The position numbers were made by a program, and so were the translations under genes. A stretch of DNA of 64,000 bases, from assembly GCA_051362555.1 (NCBI GenBank), contig CM120640.1:39100788-39164787 (forward strand), written 5' to 3'. Shown piece by piece: positions 29,415 to 57,900 of the stretch; the first letter of the stretch is position 1; every line of letters starts with the position of its first letter. The notes below the pieces were generated by a model. That model had not been told where the DNA came from and did not search any database. It saw only the letters and a program-made list of their open reading frames with translations. The DNA is from Lingula anatina. Its lineage: Eukaryota; Animalia; Brachiopoda.

Positions 29415-29762
29415 TTTCGTAGCAGTCAGAAATAAAGCGGTCCTTAACCGTTGTGGTATACAAGTAATATGATTCACATATCACGATAATTGACATCACG
29501 TAGGTTGTCAGAGATTAAACAAACAAAAACATAGAGGGTTATTGTAACCATGCATAACTTCAACAACTGGCGTTTCAAGAGGGTCCCCTGATTCATTATT
29601 TTGCCAGAAAATATTGGCTGAAAAAACATATCATAGCGACAAATAACTGCCGTATTAGAAACTGTGCTTAAAATGTATCACTAGGCAAATAAGAAGTATG
29701 TTTGGTCTGTAGGTCCATTTATGTGACTACCATATAACCACCATATAGGCTTAACTATGTCT

Positions 29763-29806
29763 ATGTCTCTGAAATCCCTCCTGACATCAGCTAAAGTGAA
29801 AAACAG
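29763..29806 (+). CDS. Candidate alternative first exon V1a of ADGB (MSLKSLLTSAKVKN-S)
   Basis: ATG 29763 (or in-frame 29757) to AACAG|gtaacg; 44 nt, phase 2. An X-box-like gtaaccatgcataac lies at 29544-29558. Confidence 0.55.
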
Positions 29807-30940
29807 GTAACGTAGCTTATTTCTAGTTGTAACCTAAATTGTCGATATAACATTGTAATATAGAATAAAAAGAATAGTAAGTTTAACTTTGATAAAGAAG
29901 TCTCTGTTGCCGGATATTAGGTTGACAGACAAACTTAAAATGAAAACTTGGCCCTGGAATACCGAGCGTTATACCACACCTGACAAGAGGGTCTCTTTGA
30001 ATAAAAAAGGCTAGGTGAGCTGATCAATGTTATGTCCTCGAAGGACAAGCACAAATGTCTAGCTTAAATCCTATACACTGAATAAAATAGGCCTACATAT
30101 AATTGAACTTAAGCAAAATTTAAACATCAGAATTCTTCCATTAAAAAAAGAAGGGAAAAGCGGGGATGCGCTGTCTCGTAACTCTTCTCCCTCCCCGTCT
30201 CCCGCCCCTTATTCTTGCTCCAAAAATGTGAGAGCGAAATTATGCTTCTCTTTTATATTTATAGAGCTAAGCGAGGCAAAGCTATTTTATTCTTGTGACT
30301 CCTGGATCTGGAAGTGCTATAGACCTATTAGTTATGAGTCACAAAGTCAATTTTATGTTTAAAACACAGGCTCGTCATTAAACTGGCCATACTATTCATG
30401 TACATTAGTACTTGTATGTCCAAGTTATTGTATTACTAAGCCTTAGTCTATAGAAGTAGGAAAAAAATTTAATTTACCTATAGTTCCAGGCGCTCTTGTG
30501 TATTCTTCCGACGTTGTTGATCAGCCCAAGTAAATGTGAAGTAAAACTTTTACTCAATTTGTAACGAAAGGGATTCGTTACCATCGCATAAGGGTCATTA
30601 GCATGATAAAGCATGTACATACAATTTGTAATGTTTGGTAATTGTCTGGTGTTAATCTGCCACTGCGCTTTGATCGTTTTTATAACAAGTCTGTATTCAT
30701 TTCAAAGCATCATTTAATGTTTTTCTATGTGACACTGGTGTCAGATAGAATTAGGCCTACTTGATATGAAGCATTATTTTAACAGGCATTTGGATTTCTA
30801 AAAAGCCTACCCGCACTGTATGACAAAATAAAAACAAAAGTCGTGAACAATGATAGATCGTTCATATTTTATTATTCAATTTTGAAAAAAAATTTATGGC
30901 TGTTATCACTTTCCTGACATAGCCGTGTTTTCGAGTAACT

Positions 30941-31038
30941 GTGTGTGTGTGTGTGTGTGTTTGTTTGTGTGGGTGCGTGCGTACATACATTATATTATAT
31001 TATATTATATTATATTATATTATATTATATTATATTAT
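30941..31038. repeat. (GT)n and (TATAT)n microsatellites
   Basis: Directly visible. Confidence 0.9.
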
Positions 31039-31095
31039 ATTATATTATATTATATTATGTAGCCTGCCTGTCATAACATCATATATTTTTTTCAG

Positions 31096-31194
31096 TGAGC
31101 ACGATGATTCAGGCAGCGAAACAAAATCGAGAAGAGCGTCAATGATGACGAGAAGTGCTTCAAAAATGGCTTATCGGGACAACCCCAGCCCGGA
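31096..31194 (+). CDS. Symmetric phase 2-2 exon V1b (EHDDSGSETKSRRASMMTRSASKMAYRDNPSP-E), likely follows V1a
   Basis: tttttttcag| acceptor, |gtaagt donor, 99 nt, open frame. Confidence 0.65.
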
Positions 31195-32390: not shown

Positions 32391-32851
32391 ATGAGTTCCA
32401 AGCCTGACCCCGCTCCTCCGTCGGAGTCAGCAACAACTACGCCTGGTGCTAAATTAAAAGGCCGCAGTTTTAAAAGCTTGGTGACAGGGATACAGACGCT
32501 GAATAAACTAAGAATGAGCAAAGTTGGTAACCCGACCGAGTCACCGTCGGGGAACAGGAGGGTTTCTGTCTCCTTCGCTCCGGGAGTGGGTGAAAAGGGA
32601 GAGAAGTCGGACAGCTCTTTAATCTCCAGTTCTAGTGGCGGCGGTGGTGGTGGTGGTGGTGGTGTTGGTAGCTTGGGGACGGCGGCTGCAAGTCGTGACC
32701 CGGGGAGTAGTAATACCAATACAACCAAGTCAGAGGCCCAAGGGACAAAGTCGCCACCTTCGGGAGCTGTGAAAAAACGAAACTCTGCAAGTGATATTAA
32801 AGGAAGTCCCCACACGGAGGGCGCGCCTCCTCAGAGAAAAGGAAGCAGCAC
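32391..32851 (+). CDS. Candidate alternative first exon V2 (153 aa, Ser/Gly-rich disordered)
   Basis: ATG to AGCAC|gtgagt; 461 nt, phase 2; GC-rich coding-like island in an AT-rich background. Confidence 0.7.
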
Positions 32852-34139: not shown

Positions 34140-34270
34140 ATGAAAGGGGGACTGTTAAAGTTAACAAAGGCCCTCAAGGGTGGCCAGGATGGATCGGCAA
34201 CAGCTGACAAACCTGCTGGAACAGAGAGCCCCACGGCGGCTATGGACAAGCTCAACAGGCTTGTCAAGTC
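34140..34270 (+). CDS. Candidate alternative first exon V3 (MKGGLLKLTKALKGGQDGSATADKPAGTESPTAAMDKLNRLVK-S)
   Basis: acaATG to AAGTC|gtaagt; 131 nt, phase 2. Confidence 0.65.
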
Positions 34271-36659
34271 GTAAGTTGGTGCAACTATTCTTAAATTTCT
34301 TAAAATTCCTCCGATACTAACGCCACAGTGAGAAGATCTTTGCCTGTTTCAGTTAAAACAAAGAAATCTGGTTGCCATTCATGACAACTTCATGAAACCC
34401 TCTATTGGGAATCGGGAGGTTATTTGTAAGATGTTATTGATTTTAAAGATTTGATACATCTAACACGTACCACGCGTGTTGCTATTAATATTATTTCCAA
34501 GTTGAGATCTACAAAGCACGTTTTTTAATTTAAAGTAAAGCTAGACTATAACCAACTTAAAACTTACGGTTGATATCTTGAATCGATGAGAAGGATGTAA
34601 TTAGTACATTGATGCTCAGATGAGACGAATACATATAAAGTCAGCTTCCGCAGCTCTTCCAGGTGGATAGATAAATAGTCAGTAGAGGTTTAATCAGGCA
34701 TTGGTGGAATAACTGTGCATTCTCGTCTTTTTCATTTCGAACATGATATGGCCTTTAGAAACGGACCTTAATGCTCAAGAAAGTTTTAAGTTGAATAAGA
34801 TACGAAAGTAAAGGAGATTGATTCTAAGGCGCACTGAGGTCACAGTCAGATAAAAGGGGAAAGACTTCAGTGGGATTGTACAGTACCACAATGTGAATAT
34901 TACCTACATGTGTTAGGGGAAGCTGGCGCTATGTGCAATATTTTCAATATGACAAAGATCTCAAATTAATGTTAACACGTTTTACTGTTTTCAGAAAACG
35001 CGCTAAATTGATTTCTTACCGTATTAAGTGCCACGCAGAAATATTGAAATTGGATAGCTGATAAAGATATTATTGCATAGTGGAATATTGCAAAAATTAA
35101 GTAAAATGATAAGTGCAAGGTCACCACCGTAGGTTTTAGATCGCCAGTGAAATAAACAGGTGTTTCATGTCTGCGCTTCAATTCTTGTGTTTCATTGTCT
35201 TTTTTGTAAATGCGGTCAAACGCAAGTTAGCTACGTGTTACACAATCAAGGCAACTTTGAGATTCACGGATCACGGAAAGAAAACGAAACGTCGCCATTG
35301 TTTCATTACTTGCGTATTCAGGCATAAAATTGAATTAGTCGTGACCATTTGCACTAAACGACAGAGGAAAGCGGACCACTCCGTTCGTGTCACATCTAAC
35401 ACAATCGAAAAATTGTCTGCGCAATCACAACACAATAGTTCTTCATGGTTATAAGCTACATCAAGGTTATAAGATAAGAACTCCCCCATATAAGAATATT
35501 TGATGTTTTATATTGACTCTGTCTACAACTTATAATAATGACATTTTGGATTCTTATCGGAAACAACTTACATTTTCCCCAGGGTTTATTATAATGACAA
35601 ATCAAAAGCAATGACAAATCAAAAAGCAAGCAAACTGAAGCTCTTAACATATAATGGAGGGAGATCTTCTTATTTATATATGATCAAGCGTTGAGTGGTA
35701 CCTTCAGCTTATATTTTGAATTCTTGATTTGGGTAACGTTTGTTCAGACTCCTTTCTAACTTGGTGAATAGTGTCCATATTTCAGAGCTTCATAGAAGTA
35801 TTGGTTTTATTAAGGTGCGGAAGTCCTATTCGTGTCGATCTGATTGCAATATTTAGACTATGCTAAATCATAATACATTGCTTCAGAACCATTTAGTAAC
35901 ACAGCAGTTTGTTTTTTTAGCTTCTAGTCACGAAGTTTACATTAAGGCATGTCAAAGCCACGTGAGTTTAATGGTAGAATCTTAAACTTAAGTTTTGAAT
36001 TGAATAACATTTGACATCACCCTGGGGAGATCATAGTTGGCCCCTATATTTCTATTTATCAAGCACGTGTGCTATAATAACAGTCATTGCACAGACCTAT
36101 GTTGAAACCTCATAAAAAGAATAATTGCAGGCAAAACGTTTTGGTTGACAGACACAAGCATTGCGGCAGTCTTGTTTTCCATCATCATATCTTGTCCACT
36201 TTTTACTAAAAACATTATAACTCAAGAAACTGATAGCGGAAATGACGTCTGTCCCTAGAGAGACACGTGTGTGTGTGTGTGCTTGTTCTCACTTTCATCG
36301 TCGTACTGACTACTGGAGCTTATGCATCCTAAGTGCGCTAAACAAAGCGCTAATAACTCTGTATATTGAATTTGCTCCTGGAGTTAACTTAGCAGGATAG
36401 AACAAACAGTATCAACGGTCGATTGAGTCAAGGATTTATCAGAATAAAATAGACCAGAGCATTATGGGCGGAAATTCGAAACTTGATTGAAATCGACTTT
36501 TTTCGAAACAAGAGGGGCTGTTTTTGAACAGCAGCATTAGGACGGATGATTTGCCAGATACTTTAAACTGAATGCACCGTTACTTGGAGAAGGGCTATGA
36601 AATACGATTACTGGTTTAAGAAATATTTAGAGGATACTTGACATAACATCATCGAAACC

Positions 36660-37159
36660 ATGAATGAAGATGCGTCAAATAACGCTACCGGCGGATTGCA
36701 GGATGGTGATATAAAACTACTAAAAGGACTGAAGGGATTTTCTAGGGTTTTGAAATCTGGTACATTAAATTCTGCCAATGTGTCAAAAACTGAAAACAAT
36801 CAGGGCGCAGCAAAGAACGTGCAAAGATTGTTCCACAAAGAAGCCGCCGCGGAAAGACGGAAAAGTGATGCGGTAAAATCCACTACTTCTATGACTGGAG
36901 AAATGTCTGGAAAATTGCCGTCCATCGGTCGTCTGCTTAAAAACAGGTCCTTGTCAAGTTCTGCTGGTCTGATGAGAATGATAGAAACAGGAGGCAGTGG
37001 AGACGATCAAAATAAAACCGTTCATAAACTTCAGGCCATGTCCCAACTATTGTTAAAGGGTTCCCCGTCGCGAGCTGGAACAGCCGAAGATACTCGAGGG
37101 TCAAGCCCGGAAACTCGGATACGCTCGGCTATAATGGCCAAAAAGCTTATGTTGTTATC
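36660..37159 (+). CDS. Candidate alternative first exon V4 (166 aa)
   Basis: accATG to TTATC|gtaagt; 500 nt, phase 2. Confidence 0.7.
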
Positions 37160-39269
37160 GTAAGTGTCAGTGCTTTATTTAGCAATCACGTCTTTCTGTC
37201 CCCTTCCCTTCTCGATTTTTTTCTATTTTATCATACATTTCAGCACAGCTTTAAGTACAATTACAAAGTCTTGACGCTCTTCCTTTGTTTGTTCCTCGTA
37301 GCTATTTGTCCATTGTGTTTCTCGACAGGTTCTGGAAATATTTTATTCGTTCCCTATATGTTTGATATGCTCTGTTAGTTCAAAGATGTTCTGTTTTTGA
37401 CATATTTATTATTTCGATGAAACGCATTAAAATATTTGCCAATAAACGACAATTATATTTAACGTTTCATCACATAAAGTTGTAGTATCAACATTTGTGG
37501 GCGATAGGTTCCTTTGTATTGGGTAGTTATGACGAAAGGATTACTAGAATATTTAAACTAAGTACACAGCGGAAAGCAATGCTTGTTCATACACCAGTAT
37601 GGACACAGGCTTATAGTGACGGGAAAACAATATCCTTGGTTTTTCAGGAGTAAAAAGGGACAGAAAAAAAGCAATTACATGTGGAACAATGGGACTGAAA
37701 ATAGACATGAATGAATGAGCGCAGAAATTTGCAAACATAATTTTATATCTGAGTGTTACCACCAAATCAGTTGATCGGGCAGTGAAAGTACCTAGAAATG
37801 GTTTCGTCAATTTTTTGTCATATTTGTCTAATATGATTTGATCAAAATTGGTTTTTATTCAGCGTGTTCTTTGTAGCGAAAAACGCAGCTAAAAATAGCT
37901 ATTTCTGCCTTTAAGAAAAAAAATCGCTTTATCATCCGGTGTTCAAGTTGATGACCGTTTGTGTATTAACATTAAGTTGGCAAGAACACAATTACCAGTA
38001 TAAGTTGATGCTAAGCCATTGCAAGTTGCTTAGACTTCAATGTTAAGACGTAAATAAATCCACAACACGGGGCCGTTCCACAAAAGAACATAAGTTCAAA
38101 CGTTGGCATAAACTTTAAGATAATATTTTTATTACTTAAAAGAAGCATTGAGCCTCTTGAACAAAAAAATGACTTAAATGTACGTTTCAGGTTCATCGTT
38201 ACGTTACTTTATTATACTGGTACTTGACTACTAAAGTATACATGAACGCATGTAACTGATTTAACTTGATCGAAAAGGACCAAAATTGTGATCTAAAACT
38301 GAAGACCACTCCTTGGTTTGAAGTTTTTTTTTCCAACTTGCCCGAAGGCCTACTAATCACCGTGGTAATACGGCAGCAGTAGTGCATGACAACGTCTGTT
38401 TATTACAACAGCTATGAGGCTAATTCTGTGTGTAAACACGATTCTTTAGGAATCACGAATGAAATCCATTTTTCTGTCCTGAATTAACTTAATATAGTTC
38501 ATATTTGATTATCGCTTTTTACCAAAACATTTAGAGACCTATAGATGAAGGTTGCTATTTTTTATTGATCAGCACAGGCAAGAAAAACGTCGAAGATAGT
38601 CTTGCATTATGTGATGTATCGTACTCATTAGCACTCGGGTAAAATATCGACACTGAACTTATTTAGTAACAGTGCATAGACACGTTAAACACATTCCTTT
38701 TGTTTAACATATTAAAACATCATTATGGATGCTAATACGACCATTTTTTATCATTGTAAATGCTTATGCGACCGCTATTTTCATCGTTACGAATGCTTAT
38801 GCGTCCATTTTTTTCCTCACGCCTATATCACAGTTTTCACAAACCGCCTTAATGCCTCGTTACAGTCGAAAACAAATTCAATTTCAATGTTTCTTTATGT
38901 CGAAAGTAAATTTAGCAAAAAAACAGCAACAGCCTGTTCTATAAGTGAATGAGTTCTTTTGTGGAGTTATAAAGTACATTGTGGCAAATGTAACGGGGCC
39001 GTTTCTGTTAATCATGTTTCCAAAACTCAAACACAACAATCACACTTTTATTCAACCCTGCCTAGTATAAACATGGGAGTCTATCACAGCTACTGAATAC
39101 TTTGCAAGTGAACGTAATAAGGGTCGCCTGTGTCGAAGACGGACTTTTTATAATTTGTTAGGACTGTGAAATTTGATAGTTTTAAGTTGTGTCGGATAAA
39201 AGAAGCCTTGGAGACCGTATGGCAGACTCGCTTAGATCGAGTAGTAAAGTGACATTTCGGGTATTAACC

Positions 39270-39328
39270 ATGTCGGTCCGGGGAGCCACCCCATCACGCC
39301 GCACGAAATCTCCCGGAAAAGATCATGG
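39270..39328 (+). CDS. Candidate alternative first exon V5 (MSVRGATPSRRTKSPGKDH-G)
   Basis: accATG to CATGG|gtgagt; 59 nt, phase 2. Confidence 0.6.
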
Positions 39329-39917
39329 GTGAGTTTATGAAGTAAAACATTTGTGATGCTCTTCTGAAGGGATTTTTATTCGTTTTAGAAATACTCTGAT
39401 TTTGCTAATTAATTTAATGGAAAGACTGTAGGGCGCATCTCTACTTTGATGTTAGGACCGTTCTGTATTGTAACATTGATAGATGTTTTACTACATGATA
39501 TAGTGGTAGTTTTGTATTTAGTTGTCAAAACAAGAGACACAATTAAATCTCAGGCAAAATTATAATTTTGGTTTTTAAAAATTGAAACTCCAAAATGCTT
39601 TTCTGGCTAGTTCAAGGTGTTTTCTTCGAAGGTTTTGCTGTATATCAGCTTAAGATGCTCTAAGAGCCCAGTATGAAGTCTGGCAATGTCGCTCATATGA
39701 GAAATATGTAGATGCATTGCACCACAAGTAATATGGGGCAGTTTGTTTGTCCTTGTTTATCTTACCTGTGGGACAATTGTTCGCTAATTACACTGACCAG
39801 GGTTTCACCTATATTGCTATTACAGCTACATAAACAAACCGTTATTGTAATATCACCCTTAACCCATCCTTGGTTGGATTCTTATATTGGTATTAGGTAT
39901 AATTTTGTAACGGATTG

Positions 39918-40059
39918 CAGGCCCGTAGCTTCCTGGGGGGGGGGGGGGGGGGGGGGGTCGAAAGAACCGCCCTTCTTGCCGAGAAAAGGTTCCTTCTGGG
40001 AAAGATGAATCTAGGTATACCCCCCCCCCCCCCTTTTGAAATTGCTTGCTACGGGCCTG
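39918..40059. mobile_element. MITE with 12-bp TIRs, internal poly-G/poly-C and a 5-bp TSD
   Basis: caggcccgtagc ... gctacgggcctg, flanked by GATTG at 39913-39917 and 40060-40064. Confidence 0.85.
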
Positions 40060-41924
40060 GATTGTACACATACGCATCGCCCGCAGCAAGTGACTAAATT
40101 TCCAGTTCGTATTTCAAAATTCCAACAGTGAGTTCAATATCGCGTGGTAGAAAAACTATTTTGATAGGTTTTCAAGTGAGAGGTGATGGTCTGCTTCATG
40201 TCCGTTAATACCATGAGGAGATTTCTATCAGTTAAATATTTAAAAAATTAAAAAGCGCTTAGTAGACTTTGCGATGCACGTGTCCCTTCTCTGTCACTTT
40301 TCAGAAAGTGATATCAAAATATTATAGCCCCGTTCATGAGAGTAATGGTGGAAATTATACCTAAAATACATAAACTATCAGGTTAAGAAAGCCCCTCTAA
40401 ATAGATAATTTTAGACAAAAAAAAGTAGATCAAAAACCATAGTCAAAATCGATGCATCATTTCATTTAATGAACTTTACCTGCTCGGGGTTAGCTTCGGC
40501 ATTGTAGAATTATATATTGATTTAAGGGTGTCGCTGACGGAATAATCAATGACCACAGGGGTACAAATACAACTGACCATAACATCCACACGACAATACT
40601 GTTATAATGAATTGCCACAACAGTCGACTCAAATCAGTGTAGGTTTAATGTGTTCGTAATCTTCACTTTTGTAGCCAGTTAAAAGAATAACCCAGGTTTC
40701 GTCGGTAAGGCTTTGTATAGCGCTAACACTGCTTACGTTGACGGGTGACATTTATCAAAATAAGGTAGAATCACAAAGTAAACAATTATTCTGCGAAAAG
40801 GGTTTTCCTAATTTTACACCTCATTGCTTGAAGTGGGGGCGGTGTTACAGTATGACATCATCTGGATGAAGTTCTACTTGTTTACCTTGTAAAAATTGCT
40901 GAGATAATAAAAAAATTATTAAGGTTTCAGTTAAGCAGTTTATCACTTTGTATTACAAGATTTTGAAAAAAAAAATATGTTTCAAAGTTGACATGACAAC
41001 TCCATGTAAATGTTTGATCCAAACAGCAACCTCAACAATAACGGAAAGAAAACGCTAGATACCGTATAAAATATAACATATTAAAAATGAGGCTACCACT
41101 GGCATAAAATAACTTCATTTGAGGATATGGTTATTTTCACAAATAGCAGTGACTTGGAGTATAGCCCTCAGGTAAAAACTGTCAGTTTACCAGCGTCGCC
41201 TGCACCACCTGTCATAAACGAGAAATGATCTTTAACCTTTCCACGCCAATAAAAACGTAGCTACCTGGTCACGCTTACAATTGCCGTTGTGTTTGATTTG
41301 TCTCCAGCAAATCATTGCTGTTTGATATCAGTGAAGTTTATCGATATTTTACCCACGTGTATACATTAATGTGATGACTACCACAGTTTAAAATGGTTGG
41401 CGGCGGTAAAGTGGACCGAAGGACATCTGTTAGTTCCAGAGTGGGATCCGCAAAAGGGTGGGTGTTGCTAAGATGCCGTCATTGATCCGTTTTTGCCGTA
41501 TTATACTGTAGAGTGGATTCAGTCCCACCGGATACAGTGTGTAGATCATTTGGTGTTCACTGTCACGAGAGTCAAGTGTCATAAAGTCATTATATCCAAT
41601 TCACGTATACATTTTAGAAGATAATATAAAATGTTTTAATCGCAATGTTTACTGCTGGTAGATGAAGAACTGGTGGTGTATAAATAGGCCTACGTAAACA
41701 TTGCTCTCACATTCACTATATATGATTGAAGGAGTAGGCCCATCGTTATTGATTTGGTAAAAACATTCCACTGTTAACAATCAGCAAATTGCTTAAAAAG
41801 ATAACGTTCAAGTTATTATTCTGATAACCAAATGTTTGTTCGCTATTCTTTCAAAGGGGTGATATTTTTCAGAAGTTGGATTACAAGTGTGTTGTATTGG
41901 AATAACGTTTATTTTAATGATGCA

Positions 41925-42774: not shown

Positions 42775-42776
<2 letters not shown>

Positions 42777-44458: not shown

Positions 44459-44610
44459 ATGTCTTCGAGGGGAGGAGGAGGAGGAATGACATTACTGACG
44501 CCCACACCCCAGGATCGGCCTCGGTCAGGTCGACCGGTGTCAGGGAGACCTCGGAGCGCTAGGAGATGTCGACCCGTCTCGGCTAGAAAAGAAACACACG
44601 AGACTGTGGT
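44459..44610 (+). CDS. Candidate alternative first exon V6 (MSSRGGGGGMTLLTPTPQDRPRSGRPVSGRPRSARRCRPVSARKETHETV-V)
   Basis: aagATG to GTGGT|gtaagt; 152 nt, phase 2; four RPxS(G/A) repeats. Absent from the ORF track because it is under 60 aa. Confidence 0.68.
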
Positions 44611-47123
44611 GTAAGTTTTTTTTAATTCAATCAGAAACGTCTAAGTCTTTTGTGCAGTATTACTTGTATGTGCCACATGGCTGGCTTGAGACCGACGGAG
44701 CAACAAAACCCAATATGGATGTGTTGTTGGTTTAATCGACGTCTTTGGGTATACAGAGAGAAATATAATTCTTTGGTAATTAGGGATATGCATTAGACGT
44801 TAGTGAACGTGCTCAAATTCATAAACACTTTTCGTGACTGTTCATGTATTCAAAAACTGTTTCGTTCCTGTGGTTTATTTATTTGGCGCACAATGTAATT
44901 TATCAAGCTTTTTCGGTTAAAAAGTGAACAACGGTTTTCTGAGATCTAGATTTTCCTGGGTATGTTTCCTCGATTTTTCTTAACGTGGTAGCAGTTTTCC
45001 CAGGGTCAAAAGAAATATTTCTGTCAAATGAACCTATAGTTTTTTGTATGGCAACAGGTGTGTAGGCTTCAAAAGTTTTATATATCGTTGTTTAATGTCG
45101 GGGGAATATTACAAAAATTCCTGACAGGTTTTCTGTTTCTCAGTGTGACTGCAGCATACCCCTCTCCGCCCTTCCCATATTGGCCATGCGAATATGGTTA
45201 TATACATGTAGATCATCTATTTTGATGATGTAGGCAAACTGTTTATTCTACACTTTAAGTAGATAGCATCTGAGCATTCTAACTGTGAGGGAACGCATGA
45301 AGGCGTTTTAGAGGAAGTTTTTAGAATTGTATATAACCAACCTAGATTAGAAATTTTACAATGATTTCAATAATTGCAGTCTAATAAGAAGCCTAGATTA
45401 AAACCTCTCTAGACATCTCCGTATGCTCAGCTTAAATGTCAAGGAGTTTCATTTGTTTTTTATCACAAGTTTCTTATTACGTGACCAATCTACCCTTTTA
45501 AGTGAGCTCTTGAAGCTTGCACCCTAAAACAAAATATGCACTGGGGCAGTATACATTCTTGTTTTTGTCTGTGTCATTATCAAGGTGAAAAATGTTCTTG
45601 TAGTCGCTTCATTCAATACCGTTTCCTCTATATGCTGATCTCTTATAAGGCTTTTAGCATTTACAGAGCACTGTAGCGGAGACTAGACGCATTGCACTGT
45701 CGACAAAACCGTTTTTCTGAGCCGCGAGTAGGCTACCCTGGTTTCCGTGAACGGTTTTCCAAGTTTTTCGAGTGCCACCTGTGATAAGAAGCATTGACAA
45801 GTGGTTCATAAGCAGTTTCTAACTGAGACGAGGCAATGCTTTCATGTGCTTTGCATTGTGTGGCATACGTAGTATCTTTATTACCTGTAGGTAATAGTGG
45901 TAAAGGGTGGGGTAAAGATTTATTAAAGATGGGACCGAGATTATAGGGGGTTCCTCTTTTTTGTTGCGGGTCAGCGTGATCGTTTTTCTTCGTTTATCAG
46001 TTATGAAATTTCGCTACAAGATAGCGTCTTTATAAGTCAAGCAATCGAAAACTCACTAGATATATCTCTCCTAGGTGATAAATGCGAGGGGGGTAATTAC
46101 ATGTGGATTTTACTGATCCACAAAGTCAGTTAAATTAATCCGACCTGTCTATCACAAATTGGGGACACTTTATCATAGATTATATTGTCATACCACCGCA
46201 CCGGTGGCATTTGATATTCTTAATGTCGAGCTAAGTACCTTGTCCAAATTCCCCCTGCATGGCTCAGAGGCTCGATCTTCACCCCTTGCTACTGTACACA
46301 AAGAGACAGCAAGCTGAGCCGACTTGATCGGAGAAACACTCCACTTCACTTGCGACAGTTCATCCACAACACCGGCGTTTCTACATGCACATACAGTGGT
46401 CTACATGGACAGTTGCTTGTTTCACCTATAGGACTGGGGTTGTGACTTGTTTAAGTTGCTGACTGGATGGACAGGACAACTTGATTCAAAAATGAAGTGA
46501 AGAGATACAGCTATGTTTAGCATACATGCCGAAAGTGAAAAGCCCTCTGTGGACCCGTGTCACGCGTTGCCGGGGAATTTAGAAATGTTATGACCAGTTG
46601 CAAGGCAAATTGAAAGGCATTGCTGAATTCAACCGAAGGGACCATTTACTTTTTAAACGGGCATGAAGAACAGGCAATAAGTTGTTTTCTAATTGCTCAA
46701 CATATGGCATCGGTACCTTTTGAAGGCACTTGTCGATTTATCGTCAAAATTGTAGTGGATCAACTCTCCTGATGACTGACTATACAATTGAAAGTGGAAA
46801 AGCACTGATAGGCAAAGAAATATCTGCGAGCTTTTTAGTCGCTATATCTTCACAGGGAACACAGTCGTAGCAAGAACCAGCGATGTTTTGTCGAATTTTA
46901 AAAAAACTAAACAGCTGAAACTTTATACCCCGGACATACGCTAAACATAAAACGCACTAACAGCTAGTGAACTTATACAACGTGTAGAATTTGATACGTA
47001 AATGATTTCTTTGTGCAACGCACTTAATTGAAATATCAGGAACTGTGGTAAGTTTTTATTTTCGCGAGCACAACACTACAAAGTCATAAGGATTGACGCA
47101 AGTTTGCTCAAAACACCAAGGGG

Positions 47124-47320
47124 ATGAGTTTTCCTGGAAGTCGGAGACACACAGTCCATCTGACAGGCGATAAGGCTTCTGTAGGCCTTGTGCCCCCGGT
47201 TAGCGGGAGTGGAGGGGGTCTTCGCACGCACGGGAAAGGAAGACTCAGTCTCGATTCTCAGTACATTTCTACAAATAACGAGTCCAGGAGAAACAACAGC
47301 AGAAGGGGCACTCAGCAGTG
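47124..47320 (+). CDS. Candidate alternative first exon V7 (65 aa, MSFPGSRRHTVHL...RRGTQQ-W)
   Basis: gggATG to CAGTG|gtgagt; 197 nt, phase 2. Confidence 0.68.
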
Positions 47321-49320
47321 GTGAGTTGTGCAGTTGGACTCTACGATTTATGTATTATCTAAGTACCGCTAAGTGTCTGTTATATTTTCACTGAAAAAAA
47401 TCCCATAACTTACAGTGGATACGATCTGGTAATAAAAGGCATTGATTTAGTTATCAAGGTCATCGATCATGAGTAAATACAAGAGATGGATCAGTTTACC
47501 GGCGACAAAGATTATTTAGCGAACTAGACCAGCATATTTGGTCCTATGACGGTGACAAGCTATTTTCACCAGCTATTTTTGTCAGCTGATGGCAAACAGA
47601 CTTTTATCTTTGAACTCGAGCACTGCAACGTGCATATTGTTATTTTCAATATAGTTCAAAGTTAAATGTACATTTTCTGTTGAAACACTAACTCTTTTTT
47701 CTCCAAAATTGACAAAAAATTTATAGAAAGTACGAAATGGTGAAAAACAAACAAGTGAATGTTATACCATTTCAATGTGGTTTCAAACGACCAAAAGTCA
47801 ACCAATTACTTCCAATCATAGCCTAGCTACGCTATAGCACTGTCAATAATGACACACCCACCCCTAATAATAATCACGCGCTGTTTTAGAAATATAAAAA
47901 GAGCCCATGCGTGTCTTTGTGTTTTGATCCGTTTGTCACCAAGCAGCGTCATGAAAGATGTCACCTGACGTCGGCGTAACGCGAGGATCTTCTATTGATT
48001 TATCGTCACTGATCAGTGATGGATGAGACGGTGATAAGGAGAAGTTGAGATTACGCAGAGTTTACCTGTCATCACTTATCAGACCATCTGTTTGTTTGCT
48101 GCATAAGTGGTGTGTAAACAGCAATTTTGTATAAGCTAATTTTGAATCACACTGTTTATTCAGGTACAGTAATGATATTGCTTGCACAGGCTAATTACAT
48201 GTGATATTGCTCTTCTTTAGTGCCGCTTGTTTTAAACGAGACATTCTTATGTAAAATGTTTTATTTCTTTTAAGTAAAAGATCAAAACACTAATTCATTG
48301 ACAAAAGGACAATGCGTTTTGGAGCTGATTATAGCATTAAAAAGAGGGAAGGATTTAATGTATTTAATATACATAAAACAATCCTATTATTTACGCTTAT
48401 ATTACTACGTACCGCTCTCTGGAGAGTGGTTATAGAAAATGAGTGTATTTTCCTCTTGTTTCATTCTAGTAAATGCACATACACCAAAAAATGAAACAAA
48501 TGCATTTAATTTCTGGTTTTGTCACTTGGCAAATACACATCTGTACGAGCTTTTTCCCCGATATATTTGCTTCATCTTACTATGTACAGTATAGATTACG
48601 GTGTGATTACCTTGGGGAAATCATTTCAAAGCATCCTTACCGTGTGTGCGTGTAAACTCTCAAGACAATACAAATGAAGTCGTTTACCATAGCAGTCTCT
48701 TTGTAATAAGTGTGTTTTGAGCGCTTTCCGGAAGTACCTCAGCTGAGCTGCCAAAGTTGTGAACGTTGCAAGCAGGGGTTGTGGAAGCAGATTTAAGAAG
48801 GCCTGGTTTCATATCAGTCAAGTTAATAAGGATGCTTTTGGCGCAGATGCTATGTCGGTTTGCTAGATAACTATGTTGTTGGGAAAGATGAGCAATATTG
48901 TCGTTTTATCTTCGGTCCGTGTCGTCTGGACGGCGGCCGAGCTGGGGTCATTACCTGTTGGTTGTCATTAATTACCCTCTTGTGGACATTCAATATCAGT
49001 GACATGGTTCGTCGTTCAGAGATTGTCATGATTTAGTCGCAAAGTTGCAAAATTGGGATTGCAAATCGCCTTAAGTCTCTGAGCCAAAATTTTAATAAGA
49101 ACAGCAAGGACTAGTGAAATCTGATGCACGTCTTATCTCGGTAATCGCGTTAGGTTTTTTTAATGGAGAAAATATTCAATACAGTATGGATTACTCAGAT
49201 GACTGATGCATATGCAAGATAACAAAGAACGGCCAAACTTTTAATCCGCTTGATACCCGTGACAACGCTAGACTGGAGTGTTCCTCACGGAGGAGACGCG
49301 GTAGCTTTTTTGTTTTTAAG

Positions 49321-49463
49321 ATGTCGTCGGGGAACACGAGTCGTTCTTTCTCTCGCAATAGTTCACGTAGTGGAAGGTACAGCGTCAGCTTCAAAAATGA
49401 ACTTGGTCGATTGTCCGCCACACCCATTACTGGATACACTTCACAGGGGAGGCGGAGGAGGGG
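49321..49463 (+). CDS. Candidate alternative first coding exon V8 (MSSGNTSRSFSRNSSRSGRYSVSFKNELGRLSATPITGYTSQGRRRR-G)
   Basis: aagATG to AGGGG|gtaagg; 143 nt, phase 2. An X-box-like gatacccgtgacaac lies at 49252-49266. Confidence 0.65.
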
Positions 49464-51336
49464 GTAAGGAAATTAACCGATACCTTGATATGTTTAAGGA
49501 CGTTCTTCTGTATTTTGTGATGCAATATAATATATTTGGATAATAGATGAAAACAGTGCAATCAAAAAGGTGAAAAAGGGTGACAAGATTAGATAATTCT
49601 ATTTCTAAGTGGATATGTCACAAAAAGAGAAAAAAGATTTAGATCTGCAGTTTGGCTATCTAAGGTCAGCGTTACTCCACATGCTTTCTTTTAAGGTGTC
49701 CGATGACCCAAGCGTTCTTATTAAATGTTTCTATTTCAAATTCCGAAAATACAAAAAAACTGTATGCCAGATGTTCGTATAGAGAAAGAAAAGGTTTGGT
49801 TGATTTTTGTACTTTGTTAGCGCTGTTTGAAAGCAATAATGAACAGAATGCTTGGCTAGTTATTCAGTTGTATTTATGAAAAGAAACGTGCTGAAAGACG
49901 AATGTCGAGCTTTTGTGTCGTAGTCCATATGTTGAAAAAGACTGAGAAAAACAGCTTCATGTCATCACGAAAAACGGACTCAAACACGCGTTTTAATCTT
50001 TTCTTTGTCAAAAAATGACAAATGTTTCGAAGGTCAGGGCTTGAGTTTGTTTTTATATCTAACGCTTGCTGTTGCACCAGATGAACTACTACATGAGTTT
50101 ATGTATACCAAGCGGCACACGCCACATTAAGAAATGAGTAAAACACACTTAAAACACATTATAAGCCATTACTTCGGGACCGAATCATTGAAAAGACGAT
50201 TGCAGTAAATCATTGGAACAACATCCAAATTAAGGAAAAGACCAATGAACAATCAGTTCGAAAGTCGCTGCGTATCAGTCTTGTGGAGATAAGACTTTAT
50301 TAACATGAGGTGGGATTAGAGCGTGGCGGGATTATTATTATCCTACAGCTATATTGAACCTAGAGATATAGGTCGTCATGTATAGTTACTGACAACAAGG
50401 GAATCACATTGTTCTGAGGCTGTGTTTTTTTTTAATGGACGGTTTTCTCTTTGGATTTTCTTCGTCGTTCGTGACAATAGAAACTTATAGAGGATTGGCA
50501 GATTTTCTACAGAAAATCTTGTAGCTAAAAGCCAGTTGACGGTTCTTGAAAACAAGCATACAACTTGTGTGGGCAAGCGAGTGTGACAGAAGTGAACGAC
50601 AAGAAGTGTTTTATTTTCTGGACAGACTGAAGCTGTGAAGCATTTTGAATAGTTTCATTGTACGTTAACCGCCTGAATGAATTCAGCGCCATCGACCCTG
50701 ATAATTCCACTTTATTGCTACAGATAAAACTAAGCGCTTCATACTTTCGGCAATACTCTCACGTCCAGGGGATTTATTACGATGACTTCAATGAATGATG
50801 TGAGAAATATCAAACAATAGTATTGTCATAACACAAGTCGCTAGGGATCACGCTAGAGTTGACAAAGAATTTCATGCAGTTTACATAATAAATCCTCACT
50901 CAGAAATGGGATATTTGATGAAACATTTATTAGTGCTATCCGGTTGATTGTTATTATGTTGTATTCGGAAACGATAGAAGTCATGGATGCCGTACAAATA
51001 GGTGTTTACGATGTGTGAGACATTAGCCTGCGTGGACAGAATAAGCAACAGTGATTTCTGGTCAGGATGCGAGAATTTCCATGGATTACAGTATATAGAG
51101 TATTACTGTATGAGCAGTGGTGCACGTGGATTTACGATTTCAAAACTGTGACAATTCTGTACGTTATAAGCACAAGAAGGTGATCCATAAAAATTAACAT
51201 AGAAGATGGACATTTGCTAAATGAAATTTGACTGAGTTTTCATTCAGGAGGATTTCAAAGCTTTCACTTCGGTACTAGTGCAGTTGCAGTTGATGGGTTG
51301 CTGTGCTTATGAACTTAAGAGAAATAACTGAGTAAA

Positions 51337-51524
51337 ATGGCGAGCTCGGAGGCTGACAGCCCCGCCCGAAAGCGGCAATCCCGACAGGGCATCAGGCGCG
51401 ATTTGTTCCTTCCCTCCTTACCCATGACGCCGGAGGAAACGCCAAATCAGCGTCCAAGTGACAGGCGATCGTCTGCATTTGGGAGTCGGAGGAGATCAAA
51501 TGTTACGTTTGTCTCGTTACACAG
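51337..51524 (+). CDS. Candidate alternative first exon V9 (62 aa, MASSEADSPARKRQS...RRRSNVTFVSLH-R)
   Basis: aaaATGG to ACAG|gtggtt; 188 nt, phase 2 (weaker donor). Confidence 0.6.
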
Positions 51525-53159
51525 GTGGTTATATAGGCCTCTTTACTTTTGTTTTCCCGTTTGATCTTGGTTTGGTTTTCCATCATTCTGCTGTTTCTCA
51601 GTATTTAGGTTTAGGTTTAATAGCAGCGGTCTGGTTGGTTTCTTTGGTCGTTAGCATTATTATATTGTCAATAATTTGTCTCATGCGTGTCGAGCTTTTG
51701 CGATTTTTAATTACTTGTTGACAACTTTGTCATAGTCGGACAAAATTGTCAATGAAATCATTATTTCTTTATATGTTATAATTTAAGACCGGGACTTTGG
51801 GGTATATCAGCGGATTTATTGGACTCCACTTTAATTAACTTTATTATAATTTAGAAAAACATTTGCAAGTTTGTTTTCTATGTATCAAACAGCTATCTAT
51901 CTTTACCGAGGGCTTTATAAAAATGCAAGTGAATGCGCTACAAATCGTAACCAACACCACGAGGACGCATTTCAGGCATTCTGATTCTTCTCTTTCATTG
52001 AACAGGATTCATTATTGTGCTTGTTGAGACATAGGCATGTTACTGCAGCGATTGAGTGCGTGTATGATCTTTGGCTACGTAGTCAAGTGCAATATAATGC
52101 AAATAAAACACAATGCATAAAAGCATGGCAAACATCGAATGTAAAGGAACTGCTATTTGGATCAGTTAAAGGCAACTGTGAATGGATCTTCCTGCTTTTT
52201 TTTTACTTTGGTTGTGTTAGACAAATATGCATGTTCAAGATAATGAATTCAATCAATTAAGGGGAACCTGCTCCAGAACCAGGACGGTCCGTTTACAACA
52301 GGTTCTGATTTCATGGCTCAGGTAGAAGAGTGCCATGGAGAGTTATTTCTAAATCCATACCCAATCCCCTTTTGTCCCCGTAAGCCATGAGATACACCTT
52401 GAACAATACGAACAATAAAATAATTTACATTTCACTGTTTACTCGCTACAAATATGTTGACTTACACGTCGGGAGAAATATGAACACTTCTAACGAGTAG
52501 ACCTTGGCGTTGACAACGGTTTAGAAACTATGGAACGGTGACGAGGAAATAGGAGGATTTTGAAGCTTTCTTTAAATGAAGATTATTTCAATTTGACCAG
52601 AAAATTTTACTGGTTTTATTATTTTGTTTTGCTGTGGAACCTTAGTTTAAATTTGATTAAAACTACTGGAGGATTTTAGGACAAATGTTGGACAAGATTA
52701 ACTCTGCAATCGGCCTGAATCTATACCAAATGACTGATAAAACGCTAAAAGTCACAGACCAGTTTTAATTTTCGAGCAATTCTCCAGAGACTCAGGTAAC
52801 GAGGAGTTGATTTGCGTGCACATGAAGCGGCAAATTTATTTCGCCACGAACATAAAACTGGCTGCATATTTTCTGCGTGTCCGAACATACGATGAAACTG
52901 AAACCCGAGTTATCGACGACGAAGCAAGTTAGGCACACTGTCGATTATTACCTAGAGGCTAGAATACCCTTGATTGTTTAATTGATCTGTGCTGTTATAC
53001 TACAATACGTGTTGAACAATTTCTACTTTGTTCTCGGTCCCAGGAAACTATTGTAATGTGAGGAAACCTCTGACAATCACATCGCTTGGATAGACTAAGC
53101 CGGATACAAAAACACAGTTGAAAAAGTCGTTGCTGGCTTTCATCTCCACGCATTTCATA

Positions 53160-53503
53160 ATGCGTCGAGGCTCAACCCAGCCAATGTCTCTATCCGTTAG
53201 CAAGAAGCGCGGAGGCAAGGACAGCAAGGCGGCACCAGGCGAGATAAAAGAAGGGGATATATTCTACAGGACTGTTAGAATATATCCATCGCACCCGTTG
53301 GAACCCGAGGAACAGCATGTAACGATCACGAGGCCCGAGTTCCCACCTGGTGTGGTCGAGGTGCCGCATCACAGACAGCGGTCGGCAGCACACTCTGAGA
53401 CCACGTCCCGTAGAGGGTCGGTGATGAGTCTTGCTGGGACAGAGCGCGGGAATGTCAACCGTGATGAAGCCACCACGCCCAGAGAAGAGACGGACAGGGA
53501 CAG
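53160..53503 (+). CDS. Candidate alternative first exon V10 (114 aa, MRRGSTQPMSLSV...EETDRD-R)
   Basis: ATG 53160 to ACAG|gtgccg; 344 nt, phase 2 (weaker donor); GC-rich coding-like island. Confidence 0.6.
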
Positions 53504-54850
53504 GTGCCGTATTGCCGTACCGCCCCACCAGCACATTTTTTTCTTATCAATTTTCTCCTTTGTAAATGATGAAAATTGTTAAGAGTTATCTTTGGGGATT
53601 TAAACTTTGCTAAAATTGAAATTAGATTAGGAAATTGAAATATATTGCAATCAGCTGAATAAGTAATTAAGGCAAGGGTTTAAAAAACCCGCCTGGCATG
53701 GTGATTAAAAAAAACTGAAGGACCGAAAGACAAGGGGTCAATAGTTATTATAAAGGCACACAGTATTTTAGATTAAACTAACAAAATATTTTATTTATCT
53801 ATAGCTACCATTTTGTACTTAAACTCAGTTTAGGGGCCTAGTGTAAAAAGGTTCTGTCGGCTAAAAGCCATGATGGCATTTTTGTTCGAGTTTAGCTTTC
53901 TTCCTTTTTTATGCACGTCGACTGTTTAATTCTACTTCATCGCTTGTGAAAGTGAATCAATGACAGTGTAGTGTGACATTTAAGAGAGATACATTGCGGC
54001 ACAGAAAGTTATCATTAATCGATAAATCTGATTAGGTAAGGTATCGGCTACGTTCACTAGTTAAGGTACCGAATATGGGAAGTTTCCTATAAAAGAACTT
54101 AACTTTAAAACCAACCACTTACCTTTATGTCCCATAGTCGGCTGGTAGGCCTACAGCATCTTGTTTAAATTGCCAGGAAAAACTAGAGACTTTCAGGACA
54201 ATCCTAAAAATAGCGTATACAAGCATTGGCTACTTACTGTGTCAAGATGTTTTGTAAAACATTTTGGTGGGCAAAATTTGATTTTTTAGGAATGTAAGAT
54301 TGACATTCAAAATGTAAGTGCTTGTCTAAATATACAACAGATAAAGGTTAAGTGGTATTAATGTTATAACTTGTAGGAGGGACTATAAAAATAATGTTTA
54401 AGTACTGACAGAGGTTTGGGATCCTTGCTTTAAAAAAAAAACAAAGTGGCAGATCCAATCCTATCCCTTCGCTAAATGATTTATCAATATAGGCCTACTT
54501 ATTGGGCTCACAGGTAATATCAAACAAGCAGACAAGTAAATAAATAAATAAATAAATAAAGCAAAATAATTTTATCCCCCCCCCCCCCCCCCCCAATGTG
54601 TTGACGCTAGGGACCCTGAATCCTAGGTTTATAATGTTTTAACAGCAGTCTTTTCACAGTGGCATCAGGGTGTTAAACAAAATGAGTGTTTGCTACGTTT
54701 ACGATAGATAACGATAGCTAAACTTTTGTGAAGTTATTATAACCGCATGTAACTATTGCTAGATGGTTAATTTTGCATATACTTTAAAACTCAAAACAAA
54801 ACTTCGTTTGTTTTGGTATGGGACGTCTTTGTGACAGTGTAATACCCTGG

Positions 54851-54918
54851 CGCCATCTTCACTGCTCAGAGCTCAAAAACATTGTACGCATGCGTGGCGA
54901 CCTGCTGCTCGTGGCAAC
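54851..54918 (+). promoter_or_regulatory. Canonical ADGB proximal promoter: YY1-like, NRF1-like and RFX X-box-like motifs
   Basis: CGCCATCTT at 54851-54859, CGCATGCG at 54887-54894 and gctgctcgtggcaac at 54904-54918, 60-130 nt upstream of the ATG. Confidence 0.55.
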
Positions 54919-54980
54919 CAAATATATTTTAAAATATAATACTGAAAAAATTCGAATGCCATTAAAATGATTTTATGACG

Positions 54981-57900
54981 ATGGCATCGAAAACAGCAAA
55001 AAAGAAGGAATCATCTGGGCGGGTTAGCTCTGCAGGCAAAACTGAGTAAGTGAGGCTATACAAACTTATTGACCTTGCAACTTGTTTGATTGGAAACAAT
55101 ATGGCGGACAAATTTGCGTGAACCTTATTATAAACACAGTGAAAAGGTGCCCTAATGTCCTAATCGATGAAAACCATATTACTACAGCTGGTTTAAATAA
55201 AAGGATTTAATTTTTGTTTACATCTGTGCTAATATCTTACCATGCCACCCGTAATAGTAATTTGTCTGTAATTTTACCTGTAATTTTACTGGTATGTAAA
55301 AGTTTAAAAGTTATTTTAAACTTTATGAATTGCATTTTACAAATTTATTCATGCTTTAATTTGTAGTATTTAATTCATTGTCTTCAATTACTGGAAAAGC
55401 TAGTGGGACCTTATTTACCCCACATGTAATGGTTCTTTAGCCACAGTTTTATAGGCAAGTCATCCCAATGGTCAGACCTACAGTAGCAGGATTGCAAATA
55501 TAAAAATTCCAAACAAAGCAGGTCCAGAGGTTACCAGTAACCTATATTTTGTCAAATTTGTGAAATTTATTATTTAGTTTTCATAGCTAGTGTGTATGTC
55601 CTAAATTTAAGCCAAGTAGAGATTTTTATCATATCTTCAACAATTTTCATGTGCTTACCCACCATCACTCTTTTGAGTTTGTTTTACTTGCTCATATTAA
55701 TTGCCAATAACAGTTAATGTTTGTACTCATGAGTAAAAGAGTATTTACATAGATGGTACCTTTATGTTTCTTGGAGAATTTTCCCCATGAGATATTTAAC
55801 TTAAAAGCCTTGGATTGGTTTAATCAAGCTGGTGGGTTGTAATGAGCCTACGGATGTAACCAATCAATCTCCAATGCTATTTGCTCATGGAACGTTGATA
55901 TCACTGTGGAATATGTCAAACGTGATCACATAATATGAAAGATGATCAAGTATTGTTTTGCTCATCTCCCAGAGCTGTTTCTATACTTGGTCACCATCAC
56001 TTACACTCAGTTGACCTTATTTTTCAAAGCTTTCTTTTCACTGTTTCACTCGGACCATCATTAATAACTAATCGTTAATCGTGGAGTTAATGTATTGAAA
56101 GAGTTTTCATTCCATTTTTAAACTTGCAGATTTAGCATACATGTGTAGAGTGATATCTAGAGCATATTTAAAGCTGGAGGCAAAAAATAATGATCAAATT
56201 CCTCAGATATCATCAGATCTGCAGTTCTTTGTGCCAGCAGTATAACAAAAATTGAGATATGAAGAAGAGAACATTTCAAGACATAGGGAAGAAATATGTC
56301 ACACTGTTTACATCACTGAAGAACTTGAAAGCTCTTAGGTAACAGTGATTACTGTTTGTCTTGTGAAAAAACAGCTAAGACATGCAGAACTTTACAAATG
56401 AATCTTTACCAGTACCCCAAAATTTTGGGGTAGTGGTTTTTATATATTGTGCATTATATATCTGCTTTTTCTTTTTAGGGCTGCATCGATAGCTGCAGGG
56501 AGCCAAGTCCGCCAGAAAATTCCACTCTGGCCTGAGTGGAGTGATGCTGACATAAATAATGAAAAATGGGTAAGTGAAGAGTTTGTTATTTATGAAATAA
56601 AACGTTGCTAGTCTTGATTTGAAATATGGTTGCACTGGCGTTTTGACTTACTGTCATATAATATTGATATGTAGAATAATAATGTTCAAATAATAGATAT
56701 AACTGCTTGTGAATGAATGAAAAAGATTGCTCAATGCACTTTGCAGCCTTTGCTTCTTACATATTGCTTCATTTTAGGTTTGGAAGAGAATTGATAAAAA
56801 AAAAAGACTGTAGAATGATAAAATTGCTTGAAATGTGTTGTCTTACCAAATTAAACATTTGTCAGTAATTGGGTTTGAATTTAAAGGAATAATATAACAC
56901 TGACCATTTTCAATGTAGTATAGATATTCTCATGGAAACACAACAGGTTGTGCAGTGTTTTAATTATTACTTTCTCTTAAAATCTAGGTAACTATAGAGA
57001 ATATTAAAAAAGATTATATCCTATTGAAATTTTAGAAGATAAAAGAGTAAAAGAAAAATACTTTATTTTATTTATATACCTGCCTCCATATTGTTCCAGT
57101 CAAAAGAGGTAATTCTGTAATTGTTTAGTTGTAACTGTACTAGGTTATCCTTTACTGGGCACCCATAAATCCATAATGAAAATGCACAGAACTGAGCAAC
57201 CAAAGTACTAATTCAACAAACTGAAATAAGAACATTTAGATGTTTTTATGGTAGTATGATTTATTCAGTTTGGAGAGAAAAAAATCTTTTTAGTTTCACT
57301 TAAAAGATTGATTTGTGTTCACAAAAATTTGCATGGTCATAAAATAATCTGTCACATTTTCTATAAAGCACATTTTTAATATAGAATAAAAGGGTAGATA
57401 ATGTTTAGTCACAATTTTTCACAGTCCTATTTTGCATGGGAAAACACAGTATACTACTACACTAGATGCCATCATAATTTTTAATGCCGGCAGCATATAG
57501 TTGTTGTTCTGATTGTTTTAACAGAAAGCCAGTTACGTATGTGCTGAAATGTTGATGTTACATAGTACATGTAGCACATGTATATGTTGTATATGTGTTT
57601 GAAGTGAAAATCTTTGTATACTTTTCTGTACTTGCAGCATATTTGTAATATAATAATACACAATGGACATTAAAAAACATTGTATCAGTTCAAATATAAG
57701 GCACAAAGAGTATACATGTATAAATCCATAACAAACTGTTTACTAGTACTTTCTTACAAAACATAATGATATATGCTCTCAGTTTGAAATAACAAGCAGA
57801 CTTTTTTTAAAAAGAGAAGGCTTTTAAAGTATATATTATCCAGGCAGTGTTACGAAAAATATTCATATTTTCATCATGCACATTTGATGTCTATAATTCC

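Follow-up and report, generated by a model that had tools for sequence, protein, structure and literature searches.

The window analysed here is a stretch of 64,000 nucleotides from the brachiopod Lingula anatina (GCA_051362555.1, contig CM120640.1, positions 39,100,788 to 39,164,787 of the forward strand). It carries the 5' region of the androglobin gene ADGB and, upstream of the second exon, what is almost certainly an array of variable first exons. The gene was identified as Lingula ADGB, with the peptide encoded at 53160 being 100% identical to a named androglobin-like record (P0001). P0002, an 1818-aa protein assigned to the window itself, falls in the same cluster as P0001 and scores above the cut-off for PF00648 (Peptidase_C2), PF22068, PF22069 and PF22070, and barely above it for PF00042 (Globin). 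This combination of calpain-like, globin and androglobin-specific (Androglobin II/IV/V) domains is that of the androglobin family; FAP42 is the sole solved relative of P0002. The neighbouring gene NT5E lies on the minus strand with its start at ~28.7 kb, which leaves about 29.7 to 56.5 kb for the ADGB 5' region. The array occupies 27 kb upstream of exon 2, with exons of 44–500 nt at a regular spacing of 1.3–3.1 kb, the extra candidate at 41393–41457 filling the sole 5-kb gap. Its features are as follows, in window positions.

29757..29806, plus strand: first exon A, 16 aa, the most distal; N-terminus of P0002; phase 2; splices to 31096
31096..31194, plus strand: second exon of start A, 99 nt, phase 2-2, with its own acceptor and an RRAS site; in P0002 directly before exon 2
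32391..32851, plus strand: candidate first exon B, 153 aa; ATG to GTGAGT, phase 2, GC 0.54
34140..34270, plus strand: candidate first exon C, 43 aa; ATG to GTAAGT, phase 2; no significant homologue
36660..37159, plus strand: candidate first exon D, 166 aa; RRKS; open frame of 500 nt ending at GTAAGT, phase 2
39270..39328, plus strand: first exon E, 19 aa; proven by RNA; in-frame upstream ATG at 39219
41393..41457, plus strand: extra candidate first exon, 21 aa; RRTS; phase 2, GC 0.54, donor score 4.1 in a blind scan
44459..44610, plus strand: candidate first exon F, 50 aa; phase 2
47124..47320, plus strand: candidate first exon G, 65 aa; RRHT and RRGT; ATG to GTGAGT, phase 2
49321..49463, plus strand: candidate exon H, 47 aa; phase 2, donor score 5.4
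51337..51524, plus strand: candidate first exon I, 62 aa; RRSS and RRRS; phase 2, GC 0.57, weaker donor
53160..53503, plus strand: first exon J, 114 aa; two RRGS; EGDxxY[RK]TxxxYPS core; mollusc orthologues
54904..54918, plus strand: X-box-like (RFX) site, 77 nt 5' of the canonical ATG; score 14.0, second best of 44 matches
54981..55045, plus strand: canonical first exon K, 21 aa; proven by RNA; conserved to vertebrates; no RRx[S/T]
56259..56338, plus strand: weakest candidate L, 26 aa, 140 nt 5' of exon 2; phase 2, donor score 1.1
56479..56569, plus strand: ADGB exon 2, with which the constant part begins; phase 2 acceptor, reached by both RNA joints; in P0002
58413..58463, plus strand: ADGB exon 3; exon 2–3 joint in 48 reads of RNA run X6
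61865..61963, plus strand: ADGB exon 4; start matches loose read ends behind exon 3 (runs X2 and X6); in P0002
62600..62680, plus strand: ADGB exon 5; sequence matches P0002

A first-pass annotation, made from the letters alone, had proposed that twelve islands (A to L), each running from an ATG to a GT donor in phase 2, serve as mutually alternative first exons for exon 2. All twelve are present where it placed them: each has a length of 2 modulo 3, a GT directly after it and a frame that continues into exon 2, whose acceptor is preceded by a pyrimidine tract and AG. All twelve thus share one phase with the constant acceptor. The start of A had been given as 29763, and the annotated protein begins at the ATG at 29757. 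Most donors had been called strong, which holds for the 8 of 13 that read GTAAGT or GTGAGT, but GTGCCG at 53503, GTAACA at 56338 and GTGGTT at 51524 are weaker. The islands had been described as mostly GC-richer, which does not extend to L (GC 0.35). The exons had also been described as not mutually paralogous, in agreement with an all-against-all phmmer comparison, in which no paralogy was detectable (best pair 7.3 bits).

The by-eye choice of donors was replaced with a blind enumeration over 28500–56478, in which donors were scored by whether they closed an ATG-opened frame of at least 40 nt. Among 13 plus-strand GTRAGT sites, phase 2 was closed at eight, phase 0 at one and phase 1 at one; the 10 minus-strand sites yielded one phase 2 and three phase 1. 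A looser scan, with a hand-made donor matrix (score at least 2), returned phases 0/1/2 at 4/7/16 on the plus strand (binomial p 0.005) and 9/6/6 on the minus strand. With GC of at least 0.45 the same counts were 2/2/9 (p 0.009) and 3/0/0, and in the control region 1–17000 they were 4/1/0 and 2/1/3. The phase-2 excess is therefore real, but weaker than the chance estimate of 1 in 59,000 put forward initially. The blind list adds GC-rich phase-2 candidates absent from the first-pass annotation, the best being 41393–41457. No pyrimidine-tract acceptor lies within 150 nt upstream of 11 of the 13 ATGs, as first exons would predict; acceptor-like AGs precede H, immediately 5' of its ATG, and J. A non-coding exon may lie upstream of H. 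In-frame stops occur 1–38 codons 5' of the ATG in all 12 islands checked.

Gene models contribute further starts. P0002 joins 29757–29806 to 31096–31194 and then to exon 2, skipping 25 kb. P0001, which resides on another contig of 250,738 bases, begins with exon J and continues into a later part of ADGB lacking the calpain domain, so J is recognised as a coding start although its splice to exon 2 is not. This record is likely a model built on a second, incomplete copy of the locus, reflecting an uncollapsed haplotype or a gap; it could also be a real short isoform. Among the records of other animals, P0014 contains a full 1736-aa ADGB open reading frame (ORF) with a non-canonical start on an assembly contig of 6358 bases, and must represent a spliced mRNA.

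Eight of nine RNA runs labelled as the same species were mapped, X1, X4, X7 and X9 on 36600–56599 and X2, X3, X5 and X6 on 43300–58500, with ~6% of the reads of X1–X6 and 25–30% of those of X7 and X9 sampled. The canonical joint 55045>56479 was found in 6 reads of X7, 6 of X9, 3 of X5 and 7 of X6. In X6, a further 39 reads break off at the exon 2 acceptor, and their loose end (agreement 1) equals the last 30 bases before the donor at 39328. These 30 bases are unique within the window, and the 39 reads join exon E to 56479. X6 is a stranded run, and its low sense coverage across 43300–54450 is what unspliced RNA of a 17-kb intron behind exon E should produce. X5, X7 and X9 had the canonical joint alone. 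The ratio of E to K joints was 39:7 in X6 versus 0:6 in both X7 and X9 (Fisher p 6e-8 for 39:7 versus 0:12), a test on reads with mates not collapsed, individuals differing between runs and tissues of the runs not given. Depth in the exon E bin was 0 in X1, X4, X7 and X9, as was that of exon D in all four of these runs.

Alternative first exons feeding 56479 are thus borne out by reads for two donors (39328 and 55045) and by P0002 for a third (31194); orthologues add a fourth exon. Eight listed exons (32391, 34140, 36660, 44459, 47124, 49321, 51337 and 56259) have neither a junction read nor a gene model in the Lingula data covered, and together with the one new candidate are without direct splice evidence. 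ADGB depth in seven of the eight runs was too low to reveal minor starts; exon-2 depth was nil in X1 and X3, and X2 held only exon 3–4 reads. Exon I bins had low depth in X2 with no junction, and start sites were not called from the mapped reads of the eight runs. Read variants in exon F were synonymous in three of four cases, the other being R>K, and F and K together gave four of five synonymous. High-copy repeat fragments at 40028–40059 and 41925–42670 are abundant in poly(A) RNA from other loci and dominate the mapping of X1, X4, X7 and X9, for which 15 of 21 joints were listed; a similar element lies at ~21440–21790. Run X1 also contained a few reads in a single orientation at 45938–47271, upstream of and at exon G, with no exon-2 coverage. 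These could represent a 5' untranslated region, a long non-coding RNA or a repeat.

The observed/expected (o/e) ratio of CpG is 0.88 over 28500–55045 versus 0.23 over 55101–64000, with a sharp step at ~55050, directly after the canonical first exon. CpG depletion is established in invertebrates as a mark of germ-line gene-body methylation. If it has that meaning here, the germ-line transcript likely starts at K and the upstream starts would be restricted or somatic. Exon L (CpG o/e 0.29) sits inside the depleted gene body and would then be unlikely to act as a promoter. With its low GC, weak donor and no X6 junction despite the 48 exon 2–3 reads, L is a doubtful member of the array. An X-box scan with a hand-made matrix performed at chance level, and forkhead sites numbered 0–3 per exon with no pattern (no control was run). 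The upstream region keeps its CpG intact, and each exon may have a promoter of its own.

Exon J is conserved beyond Lingula. It matches the N-termini of 11 mollusc species, joined there to the exon-2 motif, at E values of 3e-11 to 4e-6 (82 N-termini compared), and invariant residues are shared between brachiopod and molluscs. A profile search of 1.84 billion representatives (50% library) returned 43 matches, one of them an unrelated long protein and 42 of them unnamed ORFs of 91–236 aa with the same core. None of these 42 extends into the exon-2 motif, which is what single exons picked out as ORFs in genomic DNA would show. AlphaFold predicts two strands at residues 31–60 of J (pLDDT 88–95; remainder at most 65), with no match at E <= 0.001 in a fold search. 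The canonical exon K matches the usual MASK-type N-terminus. Exon F matches scallop ADGB N-termini at E 1e-5 and 3e-5, but this sequence is low-complexity and repetitive. The best outside match of B, whose peptide combines RRVS with a basic amphipathic segment, reached E 0.0095, and D found no homologue among 1204 longer candidates. No Pfam family was assigned to any of the nine exon peptides scanned. An hhalign comparison of J with an echinoderm/hemichordate exon aligned a Y-x5-YP motif over 19 columns (probability 2%, E 0.02); the alignment beats 150 of 150 column shuffles and is equalled by 19 of 150 block shuffles, so common possession of this motif is suggestive only.

The array is not specific to Lingula, and public isoform models hold such starts in many marine invertebrates. 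N-termini were collected from the best 120 of 550 ADGB matches and up to 15 members of each of 20 clusters, so isoform lists are partial. In 17 of the 22 invertebrate species tallied, 2–7 distinct N-termini stand directly before the AAS[IVL]A motif of exon 2. The counts are at least 7 in the eastern oyster, 6 each in Crassostrea angulata, Ostrea edulis and Branchiostoma lanceolatum, 5 each in Haliotis rufescens and Ptychodera, and 3 in Lineus. A single start was present among the isoforms listed for Mercenaria, two Mytilus, Owenia and Asterias amurensis. Outside this tally, Physella and Clavelina have 2 each and the acoel Symsagittifera has 1 in 12 isoforms. Some of these starts are just 4–7 residues long, and of the 36 N-terminal families outside Lingula, 27 have a single member. 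Wherever a species has at least two starts (17 of 17), the junction residues fit one common third base, as a phase-2 intron demands, and only 1 of 65 junction residues is unable to end in G versus 16% of interior residues, the orthologues not being independent. The 77 vertebrate proteins comprise 68 with the canonical start, six with one-off or truncated starts and three that begin inside a domain. The 'androglobin-like isoform X..' models of RefSeq and UniRef, from bivalves, gastropods, a nemertean, hemichordates, echinoderms and amphioxus, show the same variable-to-constant junction with 2–7 starts, and their mollusc J exon is orthologous to that of Lingula; they are known as database entries only. 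Lingula appears to have more candidates than can be counted in any relative from these partial lists. Molluscan and deuterostome invertebrate ADGBs carry 20–50 annotated isoforms, many with the same start and differing lengths, which implies extensive internal alternative splicing on top of first-exon choice.

All 12 Lingula tails are net basic, and order-promoting residues make up 0.20 of the tails versus 0.35 of the calpain domain; most are predicted to be disordered. RRx[S/T] is the consensus of protein kinase A (PKA). It occurs nine times in the 816 tail residues versus 2.1 in shuffles, none of 2000 shuffles reaching nine, and zero times in the 1768-residue ADGB body. In 36 family representatives from other species, S or T stands at +3 after RR in 35 of 46 cases, with neighbouring offsets at 8, 11 and 5 of 46; the figure for ADGB bodies is 6 of 27. 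Overall the enrichment is ~4–6 fold over shuffles, an excess of the kind expected of PKA-substrate tails, and sites with a hydrophobic residue at +1 are likewise over-represented (6 versus 1.1 and 22 versus 2.3). The motif was found in none of 11 canonical exons and in the N-termini of none of the 77 vertebrate proteins. Of 13 tested, B, C, D and L held basic amphipathic 14-mers, at p values of <0.004 to 0.04 without correction. A general reading of the tails as calmodulin helices is not supported across species, with strong amphipathic segments in only 3 of 75 N-termini of other species. We make no claim for the PP1-docking motif RVxF, which occurs once in Lingula versus 0.37 and four times elsewhere versus 1.15 (p 0.05, one site counted twice).

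Other features of the window surround the array. The NT5E start on the minus strand and the most distal ADGB start at 29757 on the plus strand face each other head-to-head at a distance of ~1 kb, and one bidirectional promoter may serve both. Tail-to-tail with NT5E lies a small multi-exon gene at ~19320–22830 on the plus strand, which resembles RPAIN (RPA-interacting protein), with a CpG-depleted body (0.32). Two intronless, paralogous ORFs of ~420 aa at 3343–4695 and 10374–11765, both on the minus strand, encode GT4 glycosyltransferases. Their best NCBIfam match is the bacterial MshA (E 4e-49 and 3e-47), far below the MshA cut-off, and the pair was possibly acquired horizontally.

Plectin first exons encode short unrelated N-termini. 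In the available text of PMC1885805, which defines the class of genes with multiple variable first exons, plectin, NOS1 and the glucocorticoid receptor are described with first exons in tandem, any of which is spliced to the common constant exons, as in ADGB. ADGB differs in being an invertebrate, ciliary, single-copy gene with ~12 coding starts, in tails that have a phospho-motif bias in common without common ancestry, and in an array that is apparently absent from vertebrate models. The same text gives clustered protocadherin, UGT1 and GCNT2 about a dozen tandem variable first exons before a constant region, which ADGB resembles in number. Their exons, however, are described there as large, paralogous, mutually similar and fold-encoding (PMC1885805), whereas those of ADGB are short, not detectably paralogous and mostly predicted disordered, with only ~30 confident residues in J and no folded domain recognised in the peptides scanned. 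The Ugt1, Gcnt2 and Ugt2a arrays are described, in the portion available, as vertebrate-specific (PMC1885805). A 2026 survey, in its accessible part, presents ADGB as a strictly single-copy gene that does not tolerate duplication and regards same-species homologues as possible isoforms or artefacts (PMC13331133); 'first exon', 'promoter' and 'alternative' do not occur in the main text as available. For ADGB a single promoter region has been studied, and the accessible material does not mention alternative first exons (PMC7949040). The first-pass annotation knew of no such array for ADGB, and we likewise found no description in the literature searched, which covered titles, abstracts and open texts, few subscription papers and no supplements. 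The ADGB array is a real variable-first-exon array of the plectin type, partly proven by RNA, widely shared and silent in databases.

The reading we lean towards is that of an array with sample-dependent exon choice, in which promoter choice would give ciliated cell types differing basic, disordered, PKA-type tails. At least two of the ~12 unrelated phase-2 exons are spliced to exon 2 in proportions that depend on the sample, and we hypothesize that each exon has its own promoter, chosen by cell type. The Tetrahymena protein makes up the distal C1b projection, and Cfap174 is recovered with it in co-precipitation; in Chlamydomonas, the orthologue of Cfap174 is a binding partner of an A-kinase anchoring protein (PMC8175508, accessible part). 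By orthology, Lingula ADGB would probably occupy the same distal C1b position. The RRxS sites, if phosphorylated, could then couple this central-apparatus subunit to control of beating by cyclic AMP (cAMP), making it cAMP-responsive in some cilia and not in others. Bivalve gill lateral and laterofrontal cilia differ in their response to serotonin, and cAMP-PKA signalling has been suggested in sperm activation (PMC8913902, accessible part).

A number of observations weigh against parts of this reading. C, E (itself proven by RNA), F, H, K and L have no RRx[S/T] site in Lingula, and elsewhere the motif is present in only 17 of 36 family representatives and absent in 19. Loss of Adgb in Tetrahymena merely slows swimming to 81% (PMC8175508, accessible part). 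We consider PKA tuning as the main purpose an evenly balanced proposition. As for exon use, the junction reads that the proposal predicted exist for 39328 and 55045, but no joint of at least 3 reads was found for F, G, H, I, J or L (44459, 47124, 49321, 51337, 53160 and 56259) in X2, X3, X5 and X6, of which only X6 is deep, nor any joint for these exons among the 15 joints listed for the other four runs. Exons A, B and C, 5' of the mapped stretches, are not in the X6 loose-end consensus, and P0001 gives no splice from J to exon 2. X-boxes are not enriched before the exons (8 of 12 versus 7.5 at random). Conservation in relatives, which had been named as a further check, holds for J, but for nine of the 12 Lingula starts no match outside the species fell below E 0.005. 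Isoforms of other species are mostly gene models whose read support was not inspected. Even so, we expect with good confidence that at least eight of the 13 exons are used; the remaining eight or nine probably splice as E and K do, with a choice that would be cell-type specific.

Other explanations account for some of the same data. That the islands follow one another as exons of a single long, linear 5' region, or belong to another gene, is highly improbable. In its favour, A does splice to 31096 before exon 2, and H and J have their acceptor-like AGs. The E junction, skipping 17 kb and six or seven islands, largely refutes this explanation, and the 11 of 13 ATGs with no acceptor and the stops 5' of those checked also speak against it. 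We also doubt strongly that only A, E, J and K are real and that the others are chance ATG–GT islands, dead exons or parts of other transcripts. The want of junction reads, the position of L in CpG-depleted sequence and the phase-0, phase-1 and minus-strand look-alikes returned by the blind scan would fit this idea. It is countered by the strict donors, eight of 13 closing phase 2 on the plus strand versus one of 10 on the minus, by the regular spacing, and by relatives with up to seven starts even in partial isoform lists.

Extra promoters might instead place ADGB in cell types while the peptides are tolerated, fast-turnover by-products with little function of their own. The singleton families elsewhere, the starts of 4–7 residues and the many Lingula exons with no outside homologue fit this account. 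Yet J is conserved from brachiopod to molluscs, open frames of 461 and 500 nt are maintained, RRx[S/T] is in excess over shuffles, and the read variants of F and K are mostly synonymous, which makes this account improbable. A somewhat better prospect, though still an unlikely one, is that the array is real and its tails serve mainly as plectin-like address or docking tags, or as propeptides for calcium-dependent N-terminal processing, the basic sites being secondary. The J core, predicted as two strands and kept in 42 divergent ORFs, resembles a docking motif, and the amphipathic 14-mers of B, C, D and L (uncorrected) would suit such a role. Mammalian ADGB undergoes minor calcium-dependent processing in a short N-terminal region, likened to CAPN1/2 (PMC13696810, accessible part). 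The scarcity of amphipathic segments elsewhere, the J model with no fold match and an RRx[S/T] signal that is position-specific across unrelated families argue against it. PKA-type tails chosen by promoter thus remain the reading we prefer. Its widest extension is tentative and rather less probable: an ancestral bilaterian 'cilium tuning array', in which a non-duplicable C1b subunit was diversified by a bank of first exons with a cAMP-responsive tail per cell type, J and the echinoderm/hemichordate Y-x5-YP exon descending from one pre-Cambrian exon, and vertebrates having lost the array.

A first-exon switch of this kind would escape single gene models and 3'-biased single-cell data, and the CpG step may point to other hidden first-exon arrays of restricted use in the genomes of invertebrates. 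Exon-specific probes and the RRxS phosphosites make the idea testable in oyster, mussel, sea urchin and amphioxus. How a single set of axonemal genes equips one animal with motile cilia under different regulation, such as lateral and laterofrontal cilia or those of sperm and larval bands, is, to our knowledge, an open question. The array represents a route to diversity without gene duplication, hidden in the isoform lists of suspension-feeding, larva-bearing marine invertebrates, by which one single-copy gene likely tunes different kinds of cilia through swappable starts.

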